Part shown: in pieces, positions 14,090 to 58,029 of the stretch
Layout: the number at the start of each line of letters is the position of its first letter
Numbering within the stretch: position 1 is the first letter of the stretch
Source: Escherichia coli
GTDB taxonomy: Bacteria > Pseudomonadota > Gammaproteobacteria > Enterobacterales > Enterobacteriaceae
Length of the DNA stretch: 64,000 nt
Reading direction: 5' to 3' (one strand)
NCBI RefSeq assembly: GCF_045037415.1
Contig: NZ_CP173438.1
Translations under genes and position numbers: made by a program
Notes under the pieces: generated by a model
The model's input: only the letters and a program-made list of their open reading frames with translations
Databases searched by the model: none
Told to the model about the DNA's origin: nothing

Positions 14090-14215
14090 AATTGTCGGAT
14101 GCGCTCCGACCTACATCTGGCAACGGCTGTAGGTCGGATAAGATGCGCCAGCATCGCATCCGACAACAAGCGCCGGATGCGGCGTGAATGCCTTATCCGG
14201 CCTACATTCGGCAAG
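14090..14215. repeat. REP palindromic elements downstream of acs
   Basis: gtcggatgcgctccgacctac, ctgtaggtcggataag and gccggatgcggcgtgaatgccttatccggcctac motifs of the REP family. Confidence 0.7.
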
Positions 14216-14290
14216 GGTTACCCAAGCGTTAACCTTCTCCCATAAGGGAGCGGGAATTAAAACAATCCCTACATTACCTCTGGAGAATCT

Positions 14291-16254
<1,964 letters not shown>

Positions 16255-45751: not shown

Positions 45752-46780
45752 TCAGTCGGGAAGTTGGCGAAGAATTTGCTCCACTCGCTCTTGCAGTGGC
45801 CCCGAAACCGAAAGATAAGGAATGTTCCTGCGCGACAATTCCTGTTCATACCACACCTGTTGCCGTGCGCGAAATACCTCTCCTTGCCGGGTGCCATCCT
45901 GCACGAAGGGAAATTCTGCGCCGCAAAGCACTACCAGAGAGTATTCCCGCTCCGCCAGTTGGTGAAGTTCTTGCGGAGCATGACCATATTGATCAAGGGC
46001 ATAGAATAAGGTCGTGAGTGGCGACGTGTCACATATAAGATAGTGATTAGCTTCTGCTTGTTGTTCCCGGCGTACCTGTTCGCAGGCGATATGCAACAAA
46101 TCATCCGCAGTTAAGATACCGTTTTTTTCTTCCCAATAGTCGCGGCCAAATTCAGCGACATACACCGTATCAAGCACGCCCGCCAGCGCTTTTGAAAGCG
46201 TGCTTTTACCGGTAGATTCGCCACCAAGCAGACAGATACGGCGAACGAAACTGTAATAAACATCATTCGCCAACATGTAGCGATAGCGGTGAACATCGGA
46301 ACGAATAAGCGTTCCCGAAGGCGCTTCATCGCCAACTGGGCGCGCCATTCGAACGTGTTCAACGGGTTGGGCAAAACGCCGCGCCAGCACGTTAGCAAAG
46401 CCATCGCCATAGTCTTCTGCAGTAAATACAGCGTGTGGGCGGCAACGTAATATCTGCAAGCATAGCGTCGCCACATAATGACGGTGGATGTCGGCATCAG
46501 CATTGTTATGCGGGATAGCAGGTAAGTTATAACGCGCAACAAGCTCTGGCGTCAGTACCAAAAACGTCGCTTGCGGGAAGCGCACTTGCAGCCACGTCAG
46601 GCGCTTTTCAGGTTCACAGTCAGGCATTTCCGGCACGGAATAACTGATGATGAACAGTTCTTCACATTGCGCCAGTGCGGTATTGATCAACTTTTCATGA
46701 CCACAATGCAAAGGCGCGAATTTACCAACCACCAGACCCGTTGCAAAAGGCTTCATGATGTTTGCAACTCTTTGCGCCAT
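45752..46780 (-). CDS. NadR-like bifunctional NMN adenylyltransferase / ribosylnicotinamide kinase (no N-terminal HTH)
   Basis: Nucleotidyltransferase motif GKFAPLHCGHEKLI near N-terminus and P-loop GGESTGKSTL in the C-terminal half; alternative coupled start at 46756 (ATGA overlap with pnuC-like stop). Confidence 0.7.
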   Translation of the reverse strand: MAQRVANIMKPFATGLVVGKFAPLHCGHEKLINTALAQCEELFIISYSVPEMPDCEPEKRLTWLQVRFPQATFLVLTPELVARYNLPAIPHNNADADIHRHYVATLCLQILRCRPHAVFTAEDYGDGFANVLARRFAQPVEHVRMARPVGDEAPSGTLIRSDVHRYRYMLANDVYYSFVRRICLLGGESTGKSTLSKALAGVLDTVYVAEFGRDYWEEKNGILTADDLLHIACEQVRREQQAEANHYLICDTSPLTTLFYALDQYGHAPQELHQLAEREYSLVVLCGAEFPFVQDGTRQGEVFRARQQVWYEQELSRRNIPYLSVSGPLQERVEQILRQLPD

Positions 46781-47310
46781 TGATACAAACCATACCAGGC
46801 GTTAATCCAGAACAGGAAATATAAGCCAGCGGTCAGGTTTAAACCGCGCGTCATATACAGTGGCACCGCCAGGGTATTCACCGCTAACCAGACGTACCAG
46901 TTTTCGATACGTCTTCCCATCAACATGAATTGTGCCAGAACGCTGAAGGTCAAAATCAACGAATCCAGCCAGGGTGCCCAAGCATTGGTAAAGGTGTGGA
47001 GTAAAAAGCCGTAACCGCCTGCCACGACGACAGCACAGAGCAACAAAAGGAAAAAGTGACTGGCTTGCGTTCGGCGCACCGGCAAGATGTCGCCACCCTG
47101 ACCTTTCAGCCAGTGGATCCAGCCAGTGATGCTGGTCACGATGAAGAATAACTGGAGCGTAACGTCGGCATAGAGTTGCACGGACCAAAAAACCCAGCCG
47201 TACAATATGCTGCCAATTATGCCGATCCACCATGTATGCACATTGTTTCTGGCAGCCAGCCAGACGGAAACCGCGTATGCCAGACACGCGGCGATTTCTG
47301 AATAAGACAT
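46753..47310 (-). CDS. PnuC-family nicotinamide riboside transporter
   Basis: 185-aa polytopic ORF with tryptophan-rich PnuC-like segments; directly upstream of and overlapping the NadR-like gene. Confidence 0.7.
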   Translation of the reverse strand: MSYSEIAACLAYAVSVWLAARNNVHTWWIGIIGSILYGWVFWSVQLYADVTLQLFFIVTSITGWIHWLKGQGGDILPVRRTQASHFFLLLLCAVVVAGGYGFLLHTFTNAWAPWLDSLILTFSVLAQFMLMGRRIENWYVWLAVNTLAVPLYMTRGLNLTAGLYFLFWINAWYGLYQWRKELQTS

Positions 47311-49880: not shown

Positions 49881-49952
49881 AACGAATGGTGTTACCTGCT
49901 GTTGAATGGGGGACAAGAGAGTATAGCGAGAAACAGTTTCTCGCTACAGCAT

Positions 49953-50987
49953 TTAACGCCCCCGCTTTCCGGTGGAAGCGCGAATTTGCAGGGTCGGGCG
50001 ATAGATGTAATGGCTGAGCGGTGCGTCTGGTTGCGCAATACGCCGTAAAATTTGCTGCGCCGCCTGTTTCCCCAGAGCCAATGGTTCTACCGCAATTGTG
50101 GTTAACGGCGGGTTACTGTAAGCACAAGCCGCCACGCCATCATTACCAATCAACGAAATATCTTCCCCGGCAAATAATCCTCTTTCGCCTAGTGCCGACT
50201 CCGCGCCAAAAGCCATTAAATCGTTATAACAAATCACCGCTGTGGGTGGCGAAGGCATATCCAACAGCTGTTGCATCAACTGGTAGCCGTTGGCCTGAGT
50301 CGGTTCAGCACGCAGCGAAAAAGCATCAGTACTCCACGGCTGTAAACCATGGTGATTCATCGCCTCAAGGTATCCCTGATAACGCATATGGTGCGTAAGA
50401 CCACCAATAAACACGATATCTCTGTGCCCTTGTTGAATGAGATATTCCGTCGCTTCCCGTACACCTGCGTGGCTGTCCACGCCAACGTAATCGACGGGCA
50501 ATTGTTGCCAATCCAGAGGGCGCATCGTGATTAATAAGGGTGTGGAACTGTTGGCATAACGCTGTAAATCGGCTTCTGAGGTACTGTTCACTGGACAGAG
50601 GACAATGCCCGCGACGTGGTGTTCCAGCAAGGTATCAAGCACCTGTTTTTGCCGGTCACTACGCTGGGAGGTATTGGACATCACGGTGATAAAACCGTGC
50701 TCCGCCAGCGTCATCTCAAGACCCATAGTAAATTCAGCGAAGAAAGGATTTATCAAATCGTCAATGACTACGCCGATAGTTAGCGATTTTTGCGAACGCA
50801 GATTGGCAGCAAAACGGTTATAGACATAGCCTAATTGTTCAATGGCTTGCTGGACTTTTTGTTGCGTCTCTTTTTTGATAAGTGAACTGTCGTTGAGAAC
50901 CAGCGATACAGTCGATTTCGAAACGCCAGCCGCACGCGCAACATCGGTTAATGTTACCCGCTTTCTTCCTGTATCCGACTTCGCCAT
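49953..50987 (-). CDS. LacI-family transcriptional regulator
   Basis: Start at MAKSDTGRKRVTLTDVARAAGVSKSTVSLVLN (HTH), then periplasmic-binding-protein-like sugar-binding fold; divergent from the adjacent operon. Confidence 0.85.
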   Translation of the reverse strand: MAKSDTGRKRVTLTDVARAAGVSKSTVSLVLNDSSLIKKETQQKVQQAIEQLGYVYNRFAANLRSQKSLTIGVVIDDLINPFFAEFTMGLEMTLAEHGFITVMSNTSQRSDRQKQVLDTLLEHHVAGIVLCPVNSTSEADLQRYANSSTPLLITMRPLDWQQLPVDYVGVDSHAGVREATEYLIQQGHRDIVFIGGLTHHMRYQGYLEAMNHHGLQPWSTDAFSLRAEPTQANGYQLMQQLLDMPSPPTAVICYNDLMAFGAESALGERGLFAGEDISLIGNDGVAACAYSNPPLTTIAVEPLALGKQAAQQILRRIAQPDAPLSHYIYRPTLQIRASTGKRGR

Positions 50988-51242
50988 GCCTGCTCCAAAC
51001 CCCCATAAGATCAAGGCAATTACTTTATCATAATCTCCTTTTACTCATGCGATCCGTTAACGCAAGGGATCGCAGGAGATCGTCGTTTCGATCACAGATT
51101 CGCACTTCCCTTGTTGTGTTTTTTACACCCTAATCGTACAAATTACGCATAAATTAGATCGTTCCAATTAATTTATGAAAATTATCATATTGTTTTAAAT
51201 GTATATTTTTAATTATTTTTATATCGAAACAAGGAAATTATT

Positions 51243-52814
51243 ATGTGCTCTGTACGCACGATCACTGCACCGGAAGCTGCAGATTTGATTGTTGATGGCG
51301 CAGTTGTCACCGTCTCCTCCTCCAGTGGAATGGGGTGTCCGGATGCGGTGCTGGCAGCAATAGGTGAACGCTTTCAACGTGCCGGACATCCGCAAAACAT
51401 CACCTCCATCCACCCTATCGCCGCTGGTGATATGTATGGCGTAAAAGGCATCGATCATCTGGCGCAACCGGGCTTACTGGCAAAAGTGATCGCTGGCTCC
51501 TACCCCTCCGGTCCATCATCAATGACGCCTCCGTTAATCTGGCAAATGATCAATGACAACGCGATCCCCGCCTGGAATCTGCCTTCCGGGATCTTATTTG
51601 ATATGCACCGGGAAGCGGCGGCTCATCGTCCTGGCGTGCTGACACAAACAGGCATGGATACCTATGTGGATCCCCTGTTGCAGGGCGGTGCAATGAATGA
51701 AAAAGCGGCGCAACAATCTCTGGTTGAACGTGTTCGATTTGCTAACGACGACTGGCTGTTTTTCCCCAGTATCGTGCCGCAGGTGGCGATCATTCGCGCT
51801 ACCACTGCCGATGAACGCGGCAACCTGACTTATGAACATGAAGGGGCTTATCTGGGGCCACTGGAACAGGCTACTGCCGTTCGCAATAATGGTGGCATCA
51901 TAATTGCGCAAGTAAAACGACAGGTTGCCGCCGGAAGTCTGAAACCAAAAGAGGTGCGTATTCCGGGTGTACTGGTGGATTACATCGTGATTGCGCCGGA
52001 ACAAACACAAACGACACAAACGCAATATGAACCTGCCATTTCCGGCGAAATCAGTCGTCCGCTGTCAGCCTTTCGTTATATGGAACATGGCCCGGCGCGA
52101 GTTATTGCCCAGCGAGTCGCGCAAGAACTACAAAGTGGAGATGCGGTAAATATTGGCTTTGGTATTTCTGCCAACGTACCACGCATTTTACTGGAACAAG
52201 GTCGCCACGGTGACGTCACCTGGCTGCTGGAACAGGGCGCGATTGGCGGAGTTCCACTGCTGGAATTTCAGTTCGGTTGTGCCTCTAATGCAGAAGCATT
52301 TTTGCCCTCTCCCCAGCAGTTCACCTATTTCCAGGGTGGTGGTTTTGATCTCACTCTGATGTCGTTTTTACAAATCGGCGCAGATGGCTCAGTGAACGTC
52401 TCACATCTCCCCGCTCGTCCACATGTCACTGCCGGATGCGGTGGATTTATTGATATCACCTCACATGCGAAACGCATTATTTTCTCTGGCTTTTTCAATG
52501 CCGGTGCCCAACTGCAACTGGAAGAGGGTCAGCTGCGTATCATTAAAGAAGGCAAAGCCAAAAAACTGGTACAGGACGTCGCCCACGTGACGTTCTCCGG
52601 CAAACGCGCAATAAGACTCGGGCAACAAGTACAGTACATTACTGAACGCTGCGTTCTGGAATTAACCCCAGACGGGCTACTGGTCACAGAAATTGCCCCA
52701 GGTATTGATCCTGAACGCGACATTCTCGCCCAAAGCGATGCCCCACTCCGTCTGGCAGACGATCTCAAACTAATGAATCCCCTCTATTTTCAACAAGGAA
52801 GTCACCATGAATAA
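51243..52814 (+). CDS. CoA-transferase-like protein (acyl-CoA:carboxylate CoA-transferase or acetyl-CoA hydrolase/transferase superfamily)
   Basis: 523-aa soluble ORF with two-domain organisation resembling fused CoA transferases; family assignment by eye only; SD AAGGAA upstream. Confidence 0.55.
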   Translation: MCSVRTITAPEAADLIVDGAVVTVSSSSGMGCPDAVLAAIGERFQRAGHPQNITSIHPIAAGDMYGVKGIDHLAQPGLLAKVIAGSYPSGPSSMTPPLIWQMINDNAIPAWNLPSGILFDMHREAAAHRPGVLTQTGMDTYVDPLLQGGAMNEKAAQQSLVERVRFANDDWLFFPSIVPQVAIIRATTADERGNLTYEHEGAYLGPLEQATAVRNNGGIIIAQVKRQVAAGSLKPKEVRIPGVLVDYIVIAPEQTQTTQTQYEPAISGEISRPLSAFRYMEHGPARVIAQRVAQELQSGDAVNIGFGISANVPRILLEQGRHGDVTWLLEQGAIGGVPLLEFQFGCASNAEAFLPSPQQFTYFQGGGFDLTLMSFLQIGADGSVNVSHLPARPHVTAGCGGFIDITSHAKRIIFSGFFNAGAQLQLEEGQLRIIKEGKAKKLVQDVAHVTFSGKRAIRLGQQVQYITERCVLELTPDGLLVTEIAPGIDPERDILAQSDAPLRLADDLKLMNPLYFQQGSHHE

Positions 52815-53586
52815 CGGCACCATTGACCTCCAGCGCAACGGTTTCATTGCCACTTTGGTGATTAATCGCCCGGCGAAACTCAACGCATTAACCCCAGAGA
52901 TGCTCGAACAACTGCTGGCGCATTGCCACACGTTGGAAACTGATTCGGAGATCCGCGTAGTACTGCTGACCAGTGCCAGTGAAAAAGCGTTTTGTGTCGG
53001 CGCGGATATTCATCGCTGGACCTCTCTTTCTGCACTCGATATGTGGCGCAACTGGATCCGCCGCGGTCATCAGGCATTTGATGCTCTGGCACAACTGCCA
53101 CAGCCCGTAATCGCCCTGTTGCACGGCCTGGCTTATGGCGGTGGTCTGGAACTGGCTGCTACCGCCGATATCCGTATTTGTAGCGCCGAAGCACAAATGG
53201 CACTACCAGAAACCGGGCTGGCGACAGTGCCTGGCTGGTCAGGAACGCAGCGGCTGACGGCACTGCTTGGGCGCTCACTGGTGAAAGAACTGGTATTTAC
53301 CGGTGAACCACTGGATGCACAGCGGGCACTGTCCTGCGGGCTGGTGAATCGCGTTGTCGCCAGGGAGGCGTTACACGACGCCGGACTGCAACTGGCACAA
53401 CGTATCGCCCAGCGTGCTCCCGTTGCAGTGCAGATCGCCAAGCAGGTTATTGATGCCGGAGAAGGTATTGCTGTGGCCTCGACGCTTGAAGCACTGGCTG
53501 GCGCTTTTTCCGCCACGACTGAAGATGCTCATGAAGGCAGTCAGGCATTTACTGAGAAGCGTCAACCGCACTTTCAGGCACGCTGA
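52807..53586 (+). CDS. Enoyl-CoA hydratase/isomerase (crotonase-fold) family enzyme
   Basis: 259-aa ORF with crotonase patterns (LNALTPEM, oxyanion-hole region FCVGADI, GLAYGGGLELA); 8-bp overlap with upstream gene. Confidence 0.8.
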   Translation: MNNGTIDLQRNGFIATLVINRPAKLNALTPEMLEQLLAHCHTLETDSEIRVVLLTSASEKAFCVGADIHRWTSLSALDMWRNWIRRGHQAFDALAQLPQPVIALLHGLAYGGGLELAATADIRICSAEAQMALPETGLATVPGWSGTQRLTALLGRSLVKELVFTGEPLDAQRALSCGLVNRVVAREALHDAGLQLAQRIAQRAPVAVQIAKQVIDAGEGIAVASTLEALAGAFSATTEDAHEGSQAFTEKRQPHFQAR

Positions 53587-53612
53587 TCGCCTCTTACAAG
53601 GAAAGAAAGATA

Positions 53613-54893
53613 ATGAATATGACAACCTCTGTTCCCCAAACGCCTTCTTTATTTCGGCGAATAATGACAAAACTCGCGGCCTTTGCACCTGGCATCTTTC
53701 TTATTGGCTACAGCATCGGAACAGGCAGCATCACCACTATGGCTAAAGCAGGTGCTAACTATGGTGTCTCGCTCATGTGGGCCGTGGCGCTTTCTTGCAT
53801 TGTTACCTGGTTTTTAATCCGTATTTATGGTCGTTATGCTTCCGTCACTGGTGAACGCGCGTTGACTGCATTTCGTCGCCATATCCATCCCGGCGTTGCG
53901 ATGTTGTTTCTGATCGGGTTAACCGTTGCCGTGAGCGGTTCCATTATGGGGGTAATGGGTATTCTGGCGGATGTAATGGCAACATGGTCCACGACCTGGT
54001 TTAGTGGCGGTATCTCAGCTCTCGCCTGGGCTATCGCGATGGTCATTATGATTAACGTGATGCTCTGGACCAACAGCAACGCCGGGTTCGACAAAATCCT
54101 CTCCGCGCTGGTTGGCATTATGGGGCTGGCGTTTGTGATTAATTTTTTCATTATGATGCCGCCGGTCGCAGATCTGCTGGCCGGATTTATTCCGTCTGTT
54201 CCCGATCCTGTCGCTGGCGATAACAGTACGCCATTTCTGATAATTTCTGGCATGGTGGGTACCACCGTAGCACCAGCAATGTTTCTTATGCGCACGACCC
54301 TGGTAAAAAGTAATGGTTGGGGTGTGGACAATTTGCCTCATCAAAATCGTGATGCCATTGTCAGTGCAGGAATGATGTTCATCATCAGTGCGGCGGTGAT
54401 GGCTGCGGCTGCGGGTACGTTGTACCAAACTGGCACAGGTTTAAATAATGCCTCGCAAATGGTCATTATTCTCGAACCTATTGCTGGCTCAGCTGCCGTG
54501 GGGCTCTTTGTTATTGGTATTGTTGCAGCCGGGCTTTCCAGCCAGTTCCCAAATTTGCTGTTAACGCCCTGGCTGCTGGCTGACTGGCGTGATACCAGCA
54601 ACGAAGTTAGCCCAGGTTACCGTATCCTGATGACGGTTATGTCTCTGCTTTGTCTGGTTGTGCCGCTGTTCCACGCACGCCCGGTATTGGTGATGATTGC
54701 CAGCCAGGCCTTTAACGCCATTATTCTGCCGCTGACTGTTTTATGTATGTTCTGGCTGGCGAACAAGCCTTCGTTAATGGGCAAATATCGTTGCTCACGC
54801 TGGGAAAACGTCATGTTTATTGCCATAAGCGTATTTACGCTAATCATGGGCTATATGGCAATGAGCGGCTTAATCGAAAGTCTGATGAAATAG
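53613..54893 (+). CDS. NRAMP-fold membrane transporter, divergent (canonical metal-binding motif not conserved)
   Basis: 426-aa polytopic ORF whose N-terminal helices align in pattern with MntH, but the DPGN motif position reads IGTGS. Confidence 0.55.
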   Translation: MNMTTSVPQTPSLFRRIMTKLAAFAPGIFLIGYSIGTGSITTMAKAGANYGVSLMWAVALSCIVTWFLIRIYGRYASVTGERALTAFRRHIHPGVAMLFLIGLTVAVSGSIMGVMGILADVMATWSTTWFSGGISALAWAIAMVIMINVMLWTNSNAGFDKILSALVGIMGLAFVINFFIMMPPVADLLAGFIPSVPDPVAGDNSTPFLIISGMVGTTVAPAMFLMRTTLVKSNGWGVDNLPHQNRDAIVSAGMMFIISAAVMAAAAGTLYQTGTGLNNASQMVIILEPIAGSAAVGLFVIGIVAAGLSSQFPNLLLTPWLLADWRDTSNEVSPGYRILMTVMSLLCLVVPLFHARPVLVMIASQAFNAIILPLTVLCMFWLANKPSLMGKYRCSRWENVMFIAISVFTLIMGYMAMSGLIESLMK

Positions 54894-54903
54894 GTGGGAC
54901 GCA

Positions 54904-56940
54904 ATGATTGACGAAACGCTAACGGCGCTCACTGATATCAAAATGCCCCATTACGCACCGCTGGCTCAAGCCAGCGGTAGTATCGACCTTAACGGTACCA
55001 TTTTACCAGAGTACTGCTGCAACACGCTGGTTCTGGGCAGTGGCGCGGCAGGATGGCGAGCTGCCGTCGAGCTGAAACGGCAAAATGTCGATGTAATGGT
55101 CGCCTCCAGCAAAGCCTTCTGGGGCACTTCCGCCTGTTCTGGTTCCGATAAACAAACGCTTCACACCGCGAATACGCGTGCAAATGGTGACCATTTTCTG
55201 ACATTAAGTAACACCCTGGCGGCAGGTGGTGCGATGGATCATGACACCGCATATGTTGAGGCGGTCGGATCGGTGAACACCTGTGAAGTACTGAAATATC
55301 TGGGTCTGGATCTGCCTGAAGATCTCTTTGGCGCAACGTTGCGTTATCAAACCGATCACGATGAATTTGGCCGTGCCACTAGCTGCGGTCCTCGAACATC
55401 GCGCCTGATGGTGAAGGTGCTGGCCCAGGAGGCAATGCGCCTTAATATTCCTCTTTGCGATCACACAACGGCGATTCATATCCTGACCAGTGGTGAAGGG
55501 GAAAATCGACGAGTCGTGGGGGTGATCGCCATCGATAAAGCCTGTCGGGATAATCCCTGGCGAATGGTCGTGATTCGCTGCCAGCATCTGGTTTTAGCCA
55601 CGGGCGGACCAGGTGAACTTTATCGTGACAGTGTTTATCCGGTGAACTGTTTTAGTGCGTTGGGCATGGCACTGGAAGCAGGTATAACTCTGGTTAATCT
55701 TACGGAAAGTCAGTTTGGTATCGGTACACCGCGCAGCCAGTTTCCGTGGAATCTTTCCGGTACTTACATGCAGGCGATGCCGCGCATCTATTCGCAGGAC
55801 CACTCCGGGCGTCAGTATAATTTTCTGGCAGCTTATTACCCCACGACTCGTATGCTGGCCTCCGCAATATTTCGTAAAGGTTACCAGTGGCCGTTTCACG
55901 CGGAACGAATGCTGGAATATGGCTCCAGCCTGCTGGATGTCGCAGTTTATGAAGAGACTCAAAAAGGGCGCGATGTTTTTCTTGATTTTCTACGGGAACC
56001 AGAACCCGCAGCGGACGGAACGTCATTCAACCTGCAAGAACTGGATGATGATGTCATCGACTATCTGCAACAAAATCACGCCCTGTTGGCACAACCGCTG
56101 GCGAGATTAACACAGATGAATCCTCTGGCTATTCGTTTGTATCAGATGCACGGTCATGATCTCACAGCCTCACCGCTCAAGTTTACGCTAAATAATCAAC
56201 ATCTTAATGGCGGAATTGAAGTTGATATTTGGGGACGTACATCGCTAACTGGTTGTTATGCTGCCGGAGAAAATGCCGGAACACATGGTGTCACGCGCCC
56301 AGGTGGAGCAGCGCTCAATGCCGGGCAAGTTTTCGCCCGCCGCTGTGCATTACATATTGCTCATCAGAAAAGCCAGGACCGGCCTCTCGAGAGGCAACAA
56401 ATTCTCAGTACGATTAATGAGGCGCAACAGTACCTGAATCAGGGGCTGCTACGTGACGACGTGCGAGAAACGATACAAAATACCATGAGCCACCATGCCG
56501 CAATTTTGTGTCATACACAGGGGATCAACACTGCCGCGCAAACCCTGGCAACACTTTGTGAAGATATTCGCCGGGAAGGTATTCAATGCGATGAAAACAG
56601 CCTGGCACAATCTTTCCAGTGGCGGCAAAGTGCGCAACTGGCGCTGGCTGTACTGCGTTCTTTACAATGTTATGTCGAAAACGGTGGTGGGAGTCGTGGT
56701 GCCAGGGCTATCTATGATGGCGAAGCCGGTATTGCACCGCAAACACCAGGTGGGCCACTCCTGGCCTGGCGTTTTCGGCCAGAAAATCAGGATGCCAGGC
56801 AATATATGATTTGTGTTTGTCGGGAAGCTAATGATTACCAAACCTGGACTCGCCCGTGCCGTGAACGGGGCGTATTAACGCTAACCAACTTTGAGCGCCA
56901 GTGGCAAAACTGGATTGCGGCGACGCCGTTTCAATACTGA
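54904..56940 (+). CDS. FAD-dependent oxidoreductase, fumarate reductase / succinate dehydrogenase flavoprotein-like
   Basis: N-terminal dinucleotide fold LVLGSGAAGWRAA and C-terminal GCYAAGENAGTHGVTRPGGAALNAG motif typical of the FRD/SDH/aspartate-oxidase flavoprotein family; 678 aa. Confidence 0.7.
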   Translation: MIDETLTALTDIKMPHYAPLAQASGSIDLNGTILPEYCCNTLVLGSGAAGWRAAVELKRQNVDVMVASSKAFWGTSACSGSDKQTLHTANTRANGDHFLTLSNTLAAGGAMDHDTAYVEAVGSVNTCEVLKYLGLDLPEDLFGATLRYQTDHDEFGRATSCGPRTSRLMVKVLAQEAMRLNIPLCDHTTAIHILTSGEGENRRVVGVIAIDKACRDNPWRMVVIRCQHLVLATGGPGELYRDSVYPVNCFSALGMALEAGITLVNLTESQFGIGTPRSQFPWNLSGTYMQAMPRIYSQDHSGRQYNFLAAYYPTTRMLASAIFRKGYQWPFHAERMLEYGSSLLDVAVYEETQKGRDVFLDFLREPEPAADGTSFNLQELDDDVIDYLQQNHALLAQPLARLTQMNPLAIRLYQMHGHDLTASPLKFTLNNQHLNGGIEVDIWGRTSLTGCYAAGENAGTHGVTRPGGAALNAGQVFARRCALHIAHQKSQDRPLERQQILSTINEAQQYLNQGLLRDDVRETIQNTMSHHAAILCHTQGINTAAQTLATLCEDIRREGIQCDENSLAQSFQWRQSAQLALAVLRSLQCYVENGGGSRGARAIYDGEAGIAPQTPGGPLLAWRFRPENQDARQYMICVCREANDYQTWTRPCRERGVLTLTNFERQWQNWIAATPFQY

Positions 56941-57045
56941 TCAGAGATATTCCGGGTTGTGACCGCAGCCCGGAAAAAATCCCCGCGCGGCCTGGCGACT
57001 ACTGTTAGGCTTAAAACAGATATGTCGCTCAGTAAAGGAGTTTAA

Positions 57046-58029
57046 ATGGCAACGCGCATCGAATTTCACAAGCACGGTGGCCCGGAAGTACTTCAGGCCG
57101 TGGAGTTCACTCCTGCCGATCCGGCGGAGAATGAAATCCAGGTCAAAAATAAAGCCATCGGCATCAATTTTATCGACACGTATATCCGCAGCGGCCTTTA
57201 CCCGCCACCATCGCTACCCAGCGGATTAGGCACCGAAGCGGCAGGCATCGTGAGTAAAGTCGGCAGTGGTGTAAAGCATATTAAGGCAGGCGATCGCGTA
57301 GTCTATGCACAATCGGCATTAGGCGCTTACAGCTCTATGCATAACATTAATGCGGATAAAGCGGCGATTCTGCCTGCGGCAATTTCTTTTGAGCAAGCTG
57401 CGGCATCCTTCCTGAAAGGCTTAACGGTTTATTATCTGCTGCGCAAAACCTATGAAATTAAACCCGATGAACAGTTCCTGTTCCACGCAGCGGCTGGCGG
57501 CGTTGGCTTGATTGCCTGCCAGTGGGCAAAAGCCCTGGGCGCGAAACTTATCGGCACCGTGGGAACCGCGCAAAAAGCGCAGAGTGCGCTAAAAGCGGGC
57601 GCATGGCAGGTTATTAACTATCGTGAAGAGAATCTGGTCGAGCGGTTAAAAGAGATCACCGGTGGCAAGAAAGTGCGCGTGGTGTACGATTCAGTGGGCA
57701 GAGACACCTGGGAACGGTCGCTGGATTGCCTGCAACGCCGCGGCTTAATGGTGAGTTTTGGCAACTCATCAGGTGCGGTTACCGGTGTGAACTTAGGCAT
57801 TCTCAATCAGAAAGGCTCGTTGTATGTGACACGCCCTTCCCTGCAAGGCTATATCACCACGCGGGAGGAATTAACCGAGGCCAGTAATGAACTGTTCTCT
57901 TTGATTGCCAGCGGTGTGATTAAGGTCGATGTCGCCGAGCAGCAGAAATATCCGCTGAAGGATGCGCGGCGTGCGCATGAGATTCTGGAAAGCCGGGCGA
58001 CGCAGGGTTCCAGCCTGTTGATTCCATAA
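57046..58029 (+). CDS. qorA: NADPH:quinone oxidoreductase
   Basis: 327-aa zeta-crystallin-like ORF MATRIEFHKHGGPEVLQAVEFTPADPAENEIQVKNKAIGINFID. Confidence 0.95.
   Translation: MATRIEFHKHGGPEVLQAVEFTPADPAENEIQVKNKAIGINFIDTYIRSGLYPPPSLPSGLGTEAAGIVSKVGSGVKHIKAGDRVVYAQSALGAYSSMHNINADKAAILPAAISFEQAAASFLKGLTVYYLLRKTYEIKPDEQFLFHAAAGGVGLIACQWAKALGAKLIGTVGTAQKAQSALKAGAWQVINYREENLVERLKEITGGKKVRVVYDSVGRDTWERSLDCLQRRGLMVSFGNSSGAVTGVNLGILNQKGSLYVTRPSLQGYITTREELTEASNELFSLIASGVIKVDVAEQQKYPLKDARRAHEILESRATQGSSLLIP

Follow-up and report, generated by a model that had tools for sequence, protein, structure and literature searches.

We have analyzed the permease gene at positions 53613 to 54893 of a 64,000-nucleotide stretch of the Escherichia coli chromosome (RefSeq assembly GCF_045037415.1, contig NZ_CP173438.1), referred to here as the window. 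The gene belongs to an operon that also encodes a CoA-transferase, a crotonase and a flavoprotein, and its RefSeq product name is 'Nramp family divalent metal transporter'. Our analysis points elsewhere: the permease is probably a LeuT-fold secondary importer of the NRAMP superfamily that takes up the organic carboxylate of its operon and has lost transition-metal binding. The most likely class of substrate is a hydroxy- or polyhydroxy-monocarboxylate resembling a sugar acid, since relatives with ~50-64% identity lie in operons leading from hexuronate or alginate to 2-keto-3-deoxygluconate (KDG), the operon has a LacI-type regulator, and its CoA-transferase needs a free carboxylate. An earlier sequence-only reading had suggested that an NRAMP-fold protein with altered metal-site residues in such an operon may transport an organic substrate rather than Mn or Fe. 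The exchange of the permease for a symporter of the major facilitator superfamily (MFS), together with a family-wide linkage to sugar-acid catabolism, argues in favour of that suggestion.

Fold and binding site of the permease

The Pfam Nramp model (PF01566) matches permease residues 40-395 with E=2.3e-56 over model positions 1-356 of 357. Eleven transmembrane (TM) helices are predicted, and an AlphaFold2 (AF2) model computed from a 20-sequence family alignment has a predicted local distance difference test score (pLDDT) of 85 and a predicted template modelling score (pTM) of 0.83. The best Foldseek matches to this model are DraNramp, EleNRMT and BfraNramp, with TM-scores of 0.76-0.86 at 18-22% identity. 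The top 28 matches are all Nramp, NRMT, NRAT or YcsG structures (TM-scores 0.7-0.86); APC-type carriers, among them AdiC, and CCC carriers rank lower. As modelled, the permease has the NRAMP/LeuT fold, which bears out the assignment made in the sequence-only reading; Nramps are its nearest structures and no different fold was seen. The permease scores far below the cut-offs of the MntH models of NCBIfam (NF001923, 83.7 bits against 430; TIGR01197, 33.6 against 272.5). The one model whose cut-off it clears is the permissive 'Nramp_1' (NF037982; 60.8 against 50), and the metal-transporter name in RefSeq stems from this match.

Residues were mapped onto solved Nramps (10ky, 7qia, 5m95) by pairwise and profile alignments, which agreed; BfraNramp residue numbers are taken from PMC12873925. 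In the unwound segment of TM1 the canonical D-P-G-N gives way to G36-T37-G38-S39, with D38 falling on G36, Pro on T37, Gly on G38 and N41 on S39. In TM6, G216-T217-T218-V219-A220-P221-A222-M223 aligns on G-A-V-V-M-P-H-N of BfraNramp, so that the canonical Ala corresponds to T217, M210 to A220, Pro to P221 and H212 to A222; the second His, in TM6b, corresponds to R227. By these alignments none of the four canonical ligand side chains (Asp, Asn, Met and His) is conserved; small or hydroxyl residues stand in their places. The sequence-only reading had already noticed that the Asp-Pro-Gly-Asn position is replaced. Its further statement that the second metal-site motif is not recognisable holds for the missing Met and His and is otherwise slightly overstated, as TM6 can be aligned and is similar to that of EleNRMT. 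The permease retains G-x-S-S in TM8, S-Q in TM10 (Q365) and an acidic TM3 residue, D120, aligned with the E116/E134 position of solved Nramps (E116 in BfraNramp); this position is Asp or Glu in most members of the clade and Asn, Gly or Ser in some. The G-T-G-S segment recalls the G-S/T-G motif of APC amino-acid carriers, in which backbone amides hold the carboxylate of the substrate.

This segment characterizes a large clade. A word-indexed search returned 2129 homologs, the best 120 non-identical ones being 50-64% identical to the query, and an exhaustive search of representatives gave 1689 clusters at E<=1e-3, of which 74 reached E<=1e-30. I-G-T-G (or L/F-G-T-G) occurs in 110 of the 120 best database matches, these being the ones that the motif pattern matched, and TM1 stays G-T-G-S down to ~34% identity. 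About 100 positions are invariant across 20 diverse members, including G36, T37, G38, S39, K45, G216, T217, T218, R227 and K232 as well as S309, S310, Q311, N314, D324, S364 and Q365. K45 is specific to the clade (solved Nramps carry Ala, Thr or Gln there), and the Ala of the TM6 motif GTTxAP is Phe in most marine relatives. Judged from the sequences, the GTGS motif is a property of the clade and no chance feature of one protein. A second large Nramp-related group (P0303-P0389), 25-30% identical to the query, is also without the TM1 Asp; its motifs are A-A-F-I-G-P-G-T in TM1, A-Y-E-A-G-N in TM3 and L-I-G-T-T-V-V-P-Y-N-L-F-L-H in TM6. It stands closer to canonical Nramps (E=1e-39 to BfraNramp). 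No link of this 'GPGT' group to YcsG could be drawn, since the PDB sequence search matched canonical Nramps (E=1e-39) and no YcsG.

Loss of every canonical ligand could also mark a former metal transporter that is decaying or no longer functions, and in one strain the gene is interrupted by ISEcp1-blaCTX-M-14. This explanation is effectively refuted by conservation. The permease is at least 99% identical in all 546 E. coli genomes that carry it and full-length in 545 of them; the more than 2000 homologs, the ~100 positions invariant in diverse members and the confident full-length predicted fold tell against decay as well. Compared with the ortholog of another enterobacterium (L087, 91.5% amino acid identity), the rate of nonsynonymous substitution (dN) is 0.063 and that of synonymous substitution (dS) ~2.2, which is saturated, giving dN/dS of ~0.03. 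The adjacent CoA-transferase and crotonase have dN of 0.12-0.13 in the same comparison, so the permease is the more constrained. The permease gene is under strong purifying selection. Recent horizontal transfer was rejected as the cause of the high identity to the L087 protein, because dS is saturated as in the neighbouring genes. In the interrupted copy, from the clinical E. coli strain BRG214 (NZ_CM188609.1 2010138-2018900), the gene is split and the operon match is ~3 kb longer than the query. ISEcp1, blaCTX-M-14 and an IS5-family transposase are annotated within this match, and a resistance transposition unit appears to have landed in the permease gene.

The RefSeq start of the permease, at 53664 (409 aa) in identical E. 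coli chromosomes, is 17 codons later than that of the longest open reading frame (ORF). The longer, 426-aa form is probably correct, since an AAGGA Shine-Dalgarno sequence lies ~10 nt 5' of the ATG at 53613, the extra N-terminal residues are kept in the L087 ortholog, itself called at 426 aa, and they form part of a predicted helix (residues 13-23).

The transporter slot of the E. coli operon

The operon forms an island of five genes on the E. coli chromosome (alr-dnaB-[island]-qorA-pspG-dusA-zur-dinF), in the order LacI-type regulator, CoA-transferase, crotonase, transporter and flavoprotein, and is present in 826 of 5426 complete E. coli genomes. The transporter is the NRAMP-like permease in 546 of these carriers and an MFS protein in 280, including Nissle 1917 and ABU 83972. 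As the two counts add up to 826, the alleles are mutually exclusive and every carrier is accounted for. No blastp similarity exists between them. When the window was compared by blastn with the operon of ABU 83972 (L091), identity was 99.4% up to position 53574 and 98.1% from 54928 onwards, with nothing alignable between. The breakpoints, 12 nt before the crotonase stop and 24 nt into the flavoprotein gene, were also found against two further MFS-bearing operons (L088 and L085) and delimit an exchangeable cassette (Table 1).

The MFS allele scores 350 bits against TIGR00883 (metabolite/H+ symporter, MHS), under the curated cut-off of 443, and its next-best families are ShiA, ProP and TcuC; the RefSeq name for one copy is 'MHS family MFS transporter'. 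Characterised MHS members import organic carboxylates or zwitterions together with H+. Orthologous operons in other Enterobacterales were reached through homologs of the flavoprotein. In L085 the regulator, CoA-transferase, crotonase and flavoprotein are 84, 87, 83 and 78% identical to the proteins of the window, and a 474-aa MFS protein stands in place of the NRAMP-like permease. L088 has the MFS version at the same alr-dnaB / qor-pspG-dusA site in a genome that is ~79% identical at the DNA level and probably belongs to another enterobacterial genus. The enzymes of these two MFS-bearing operons are 76-87% identical to those of the window, and the LacI-type regulator is 81-84% identical in the operons of L085 and L087, the latter of which carries the NRAMP-like version. 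In ABU 83972, an asymptomatic-bacteriuria strain, the flavoprotein gene of the MFS-allele operon (L091 6325-8373) is annotated as a pseudogene with an internal stop.

One slot of an otherwise near-identical operon, which has no metalloenzyme family, is thus filled by either of two permeases unrelated to each other; most simply, both would carry the substrate of the operon. Since the first enzyme is a CoA-transferase, this substrate must have a free carboxylate. The sequence-only reading had described the CoA-transferase/crotonase/flavoprotein context correctly. No metal regulator or metalloenzyme family is among the operon genes, that is, the CoA-transferase, the crotonase, the flavoprotein and the LacI-type regulator. 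An Rfam scan of window positions 49900-57100 at E<=1 gave no match and hence no metal riboswitch.

The gaps around the permease gene are 26 nt on the 5' side and 10 nt on the 3' side. A promoter and terminator scan of positions 50900-57200 found 6 promoter-like sites, against 6.4 expected from shuffled sequence, and nothing flanking the permease. The short gaps, with no such sites standing out around the gene, suggest that the permease is co-transcribed with the operon enzymes. Inverted repeats in the intergenic region between the regulator and CoA-transferase genes included no convincing operator. A small inorganic or otherwise unrelated solute (an anion, Na+ or K+), with an incidental position in the operon, could be imagined, since LeuT-fold relatives include cation-chloride cotransporters and KimA is among the distant Foldseek matches. 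This is very improbable in view of the tight packing, the exact slot equivalence with an organic-acid MFS and the recurrent linkage to sugar-acid genes in many phyla.

The set of a CoA-transferase, a crotonase and a flavoprotein with one permease, and with neither thiolase nor lyase, resembles the cai (carnitine) operon, in which one permease is likewise combined with a CoA-transferase, a (de)hydratase of crotonase fold and a flavoprotein that works on a CoA ester or enoate. The cai permease is an exchanger. Its protein families differ from those found here: CaiT is a BCCT carrier, CaiB a family III transferase and CaiA an acyl-CoA dehydrogenase. By analogy with CaiT the permease might export a product or exchange it for the substrate, which we hold to be unlikely. 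Its interchangeable partner comes from the MHS family, in which the characterised members import their substrates with H+ coupling. In marine loci the gene is found beside those for the initial steps of catabolism (isomerase, reductase and dehydratase), where an importer is needed.

Table 1. Features of the window and genes recurring beside NRAMP-like genes of the clade
Feature	Position in window, or loci	Strand	Remarks
NRAMP-like permease	53613..54893	+	426 aa, ATG start; 'GTGS' clade of Nramp-related proteins
TM1 unwound segment, G-Y-S-I-G36-T37-G38-S39-I-T-T-M-A-K45-A	53706..53750	+	replaces ...D-P-G-N...; from alignments and clade invariance
TM6 unwound segment, G216-T-T-V-A220-P-A222-M-F-L-M-R227-T-T-L-V-K232-S	54258..54311	+	replaces G-A-x-x-M-P-H-N-L-F-L-H-S
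Exchangeable transporter cassette	53575..54927	.	last 4 codons of crotonase, permease, first 8 codons of flavoprotein
Divergent LacI-family regulator	49953..51014	-	NCBIfam MalI, RbsR, CytR, PurR-like, E to 6e-64
Family-I fused CoA-transferase	51243..52814	+	523 aa, paralog of E. coli YdiF; PDB 2ahu (YdiF) E=3e-100
Crotonase-fold enoyl-CoA hydratase/isomerase	52807..53586	+	259 aa; NCBIfam to E 1e-64, all under equivalog cut-offs
FAD flavoprotein, SdhA/FrdA/NadB superfamily	54904..56940	+	678 aa; Pfam FAD_binding_2 E=2.5e-18
UxuA mannonate dehydratase neighbour	44/82 loci		median gap 70 bp
Phosphomannose isomerase (PMI)-like cupin neighbour	28/82 loci		median gap 95 bp, mostly just downstream
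TonB-dependent receptor neighbour	26/82 loci
KduD / gluconate-5-dehydrogenase-like short-chain dehydrogenase (SDR) neighbour	26/82 loci
Oligoalginate lyase (OAL) neighbour	22/82 loci
Mannitol-dehydrogenase-family enzyme neighbour	15/82 loci		closest to fructuronate reductase
ExuR/UxuR-like GntR regulator neighbour	15/82 loci
KdgK neighbour	7/82 loci
Eda neighbour	7/82 loci
AGE-family (mannose-isomerase-like) neighbour	4/82 loci

For the regulator RefSeq gives a start at 50987 (344 aa). The CoA-transferase also matches FadX-like and 3-oxoacid CoA-transferase models of NCBIfam, and its stop is overlapped by the start of the crotonase gene. The flavoprotein keeps H-x-x-G-G and H-G-x-x-R and has QFGIGTP where SdhA and NadB have QFHPT; its PDB matches to NadB and SdhA are weak (E=1e-11 to 1e-7), and no substrate could be assigned from the PDB and Pfam matches and the motifs. 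In the homolog contexts examined, the flavoprotein gene (678-689 aa) always lies directly 3' of a permease gene; its overlap with the MFS allele is 11 nt, and its distance from the NRAMP-like allele 10 nt. Homologs with 54% identity in Enterobacter and Yersinia (L086, L090) also directly follow a permease gene, in a different cluster. Their neighbours are a TetR regulator, an SDR, a Gfo/Idh/MocA protein, a sugar-isomerase-like TIM barrel and an ACS-like MFS protein; these hint at sugar-like substrates, of which none is defined. Beside alr, at window positions 45752-47310 (minus strand), are genes that RefSeq names as an AAA-family ATPase and pnuC (nicotinamide riboside transporter), a pair that may be another accessory insertion in this region of the chromosome.

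Relatives and their hexuronate and alginate neighbourhoods

A scan of one genome per species yielded 80 loci; ORFs within 7 kb of the gene were clustered in 82 loci and the cluster representatives were annotated. Members of the clade were found in Bacteroidota, Alpha- and Gammaproteobacteria, Planctomycetota, Kiritimatiellota, Lentisphaerota and others, in organisms such as Zobellia, Formosa, Maribacter, Paraglaciecola, Colwellia, Neolewinella, Woeseiaceae, Hellea, Pontiella, Lentisphaerales, Planctomycetes and a metagenome-assembled genome of Calditrichota. The recurrent neighbours (Table 1) of these relatives, which come from 81 species and are ~50% identical, include many genes of hexuronate and alginate catabolism: at least one sugar-acid gene is present in 66 of the 81 loci outside E. 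coli, and UxuA, a PMI-like protein, AGE or UxaC in 60 of the 81. Typical gene orders are OAL-MFS-SDR-Eda-KdgK-UxuA-NRAMPL, SusC-SusD-NRAMPL-PMI-like and UxuB-like-UxuA-NRAMPL-PMI-like, where NRAMPL is the NRAMP-like gene. Among members with 38-43% identity some adjoin an alginate lyase of polysaccharide lyase family 7 (PL7), and others end an operon of GntR, glycosidase, fucosidase, Gfo-Idh-MocA and SDR genes; three relatives with 38-42% identity lie on short contigs, where the context is informative for one neighbour only. In eight loci with orphan context, Rfam searches found tRNA only and no metal riboswitch.

The closest non-E. coli relative among the database matches (P0004, 64% identity) has the same TM6 sequence, TTVAPAMFLM, and follows uxuA, uxuB-like, uxaC and gntR genes. 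Its 17-kb locus holds 6 copies of the palindrome TTGGTnnACCAA where 0.83 would be expected, a number not attained in any of 200 shuffles. Three boxes of the TTGGTnnACCAA type lie within 600 nt upstream of the permease gene, one of which (TTGGCATACCAA) is identical to a copy in the uxuA/uxuB intergenic region. Over all loci the GntR-box pattern is 2.9-fold enriched upstream of the gene, convincingly in L003 only and suggestively in two Zobellia loci. Loci of two Zobellia species have paired TTGGTTnACCAA-like palindromes 250-360 nt upstream of the NRAMP-like gene (L013 9744-9768 and 9976; L017 9636-9660), which may serve as operators for an alginate regulator of the GntR type.

In Paraglaciecola, alginate loci have a pair of divergent NRAMP-like paralogs, with TM6 motifs TTVFSGLF and TTMASATF. 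The second paralog is at ~14200-15440 on the minus strand, ~3 kb from the first (L011, L019, L035, L042, L055), and its TM6 reads FVGTTMA[SA]ATFLSRP; a relative with 38% identity and a motif of that type adjoins a PL7 alginate lyase (L095, L096). The association between TM6 motif and neighbourhood is weak (Fisher p=0.012, uncorrected for phylogeny).

A four-gene module of a UxuB-like dehydrogenase, UxuA, the NRAMP-like permease and a PMI-like cupin recurs in marine Gammaproteobacteria (L011, L035, L042, L055, L025, L027, L041, L050, L060, L065). With 94.7 bits the cupin stays short of the TIGR00218 cut-off (116). An AGE-family isomerase stands in its position in four alphaproteobacterial loci, and UxaC is mostly absent. 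The module seems to represent an undescribed path from saturated mannuronate or guluronate, by way of fructuronate and mannonate, to KDG. [quoted passage not shown]

Known transport systems and the probable substrate

A January 2026 preprint from the Gaudet laboratory (PMC12873925) describes paraphyletic 'Nramp-related' groups that have neither DPGN/MPH nor the proton pathway. According to this preprint only the NRMT-like group and 'G-motif 3', with B. subtilis YcsG/MntG as a hypothesised Mn2+ importer, have any characterisation, the others being 'entirely uncharacterized'. The permease fits this description in being without DPGN/MPH; of the proton pathway the TM3 position was examined, where D120 is acidic. 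Since its sequence departs from the defining motifs both of canonical Nramps and of NRMTs, we assign it to the NRAMP superfamily in the broad sense and to no narrower family, as part of a Nramp-related clade that is uncharacterised. A full-text literature search found no paper on the GTGS clade or on the E. coli operon.

The canonical Nramp/MntH/SLC11 proteins (DraNramp 8e60, BfraNramp 10ky, ScaDMT 5m95 and E. coli MntH) share with the permease PF01566, the LeuT fold, G-x-S-S in TM8, S-Q in TM10 and the acidic TM3 residue. They differ in having DPGN and MPH, in an identity of only 18-22%, and in that the context of the permease is catabolic and without metal regulation. EleNRMT, the Mg2+ transporter of Eggerthella lenta (7qia), has the same fold (Foldseek TM-score ~0.8, phmmer E=7e-16), and the same G-T-T-x-A-P in TM6, in which Thr and Ala replace the canonical Ala and Met; EleNRMT is without most residues of the proton pathway (PMC12873925). 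It differs in TM1, where D-A-G-G contrasts with G-T-G-S, and in overall sequence (~19% identity). In addition, no M-box riboswitch (by the Rfam scan) or Mg-related context was found for the permease, which is interchangeable with an organic-acid MFS. The MHS-type proteins (ShiA, KgtP, TcuC, ProP) and ExuT, a hexuronate permease of the ACS family, are functional analogues, unrelated in fold and sequence; an MFS protein of the MHS type fills the same slot in 280 E. coli genomes. The marine NRAMP-like gene takes the place that a hexuronate permease has in uxu/uxa operons.

The sole precedent, a genetic one, for an organic substrate in the NRAMP superfamily is PxpT/YcsG, with a part in 5-oxoproline utilisation in C. 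glutamicum and B. subtilis. To grow on 5-oxoproline C. glutamicum needs PxpT, a protein with 50% identity to YcsG that TCDB places in 2.A.55 (PMC13274462). Like the permease, PxpT/YcsG belongs to 2.A.55 without canonical motifs, lies in a catabolic operon and is needed for the use of an organic anion (PMC13274462). The relationship is distant: the YcsG model 9a52_A is ~15% identical to the permease in Foldseek, and YcsG is absent from the sequence-search matches. No pxpABC (5-oxoprolinase) genes were found in the E. coli operon or among the annotated recurrent neighbour clusters of the 82 loci.

Several points weigh against an organic substrate or limit the case for it, and some would suit a transporter whose site, non-canonical and more hydrated, still carries a cation (Mg2+, Mn2+, Fe2+, Zn2+ or another). 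The commonest marine neighbours, UxuA, PMI-like and UxaC proteins, belong to enzyme families that depend on metals, and those neighbourhoods taken by themselves could also be read as cofactor supply, as proposed for YcsG/MntG. The swap with the MFS allele shows equivalence of the slot and does not show that the substrate is the same. Furthermore, TTGGTnnACCAA, taken here as the core of the operator of UxuR/ExuR (FadR-type GntR), serves as a lead only. The closest solved relatives of this NRAMP-fold protein are all metal carriers; its TM6 sequence GTTVAPAM resembles GTTIAPWM of the Mg2+ carrier EleNRMT, Q365 of TM10 is retained, and D120, acidic in most members, is aligned with BfraNramp E116, which touches Mn2+ (PMC12873925). 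Finally, a role in Mn2+ import has also been put forward for B. subtilis YcsG (PMC10448178).

We nevertheless consider a cation substrate improbable. The TM1 Asp, which is kept both in the canonical DPGN and in D-A-G-G of EleNRMT, is Gly in every member of the clade, and D120 is itself replaced in some members. There is no metalloenzyme family in the E. coli operon, and the Rfam scans of that operon and of the eight orphan-context loci gave no metal riboswitch. The regulators are of LacI or GntR type, for sugars and acids. In 280 E. coli genomes, and in other genera too, an organic-acid MFS of the MHS type substitutes one for one for the permease.

If the permease is an importer of organic carboxylates, as seems probable, its mechanism may be pictured as follows. 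Replacement of Asp, Asn, Met and His by Gly, Ser, Ala and Ala would enlarge the TM1/TM6 site and remove its negative charge; the organic anion would bind between the unwound segments of TM1 and TM6, with the invariant K45, R227 and K232 supplying positive charge and D120 as a candidate site for coupling to H+ or a cation. Marine members would take up hexuronates or mannonate, which would enter the UxuB/UxuA route to KDG. In E. coli the YdiF-like CoA-transferase would activate the imported acid, the crotonase would (de)hydrate the thioester, and the flavoprotein would oxidise or reduce a C-C bond.

More tentatively, the GTGS clade may comprise the first sugar-acid (hexuronate-type) importers with an NRAMP fold, with a marine route of isomerase, UxuB-like enzyme and UxuA to KDG, and an MHS permease displaced in E. 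coli; we put this forward as a possibility that is somewhat less probable than not. In marine alginate degraders a saturated uronate would be taken up and passed by a PMI-like or AGE-type isomerase to a UxuB-like reductase and then through UxuA to KDG. In E. coli the NRAMP-like permease would have displaced an MHS-type MFS protein in a CoA-dependent catabolic or respiratory operon.

NRAMP/SLC11 is the textbook family of metal-ion transporters, and organic acids, if confirmed, would be a new class of substrate for a known fold. The clade has more than 2000 members in the databases, nearly all annotated as Mn2+/Fe2+ transporters. The result suggests that the names 'Nramp family divalent metal transporter' and 'manganese transport protein' are probably wrong for thousands of entries. 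For models of marine alginate and hexuronate turnover the proposed function would supply a missing step of inner-membrane transport, and possibly a new route for saturated uronates. In E. coli the natural pair of NRAMP-like and MFS alleles, the latter represented by Nissle 1917, makes the question of the substrate experimentally direct, and would offer a way to dissect the switch from metal ion to organic anion within the NRAMP fold.

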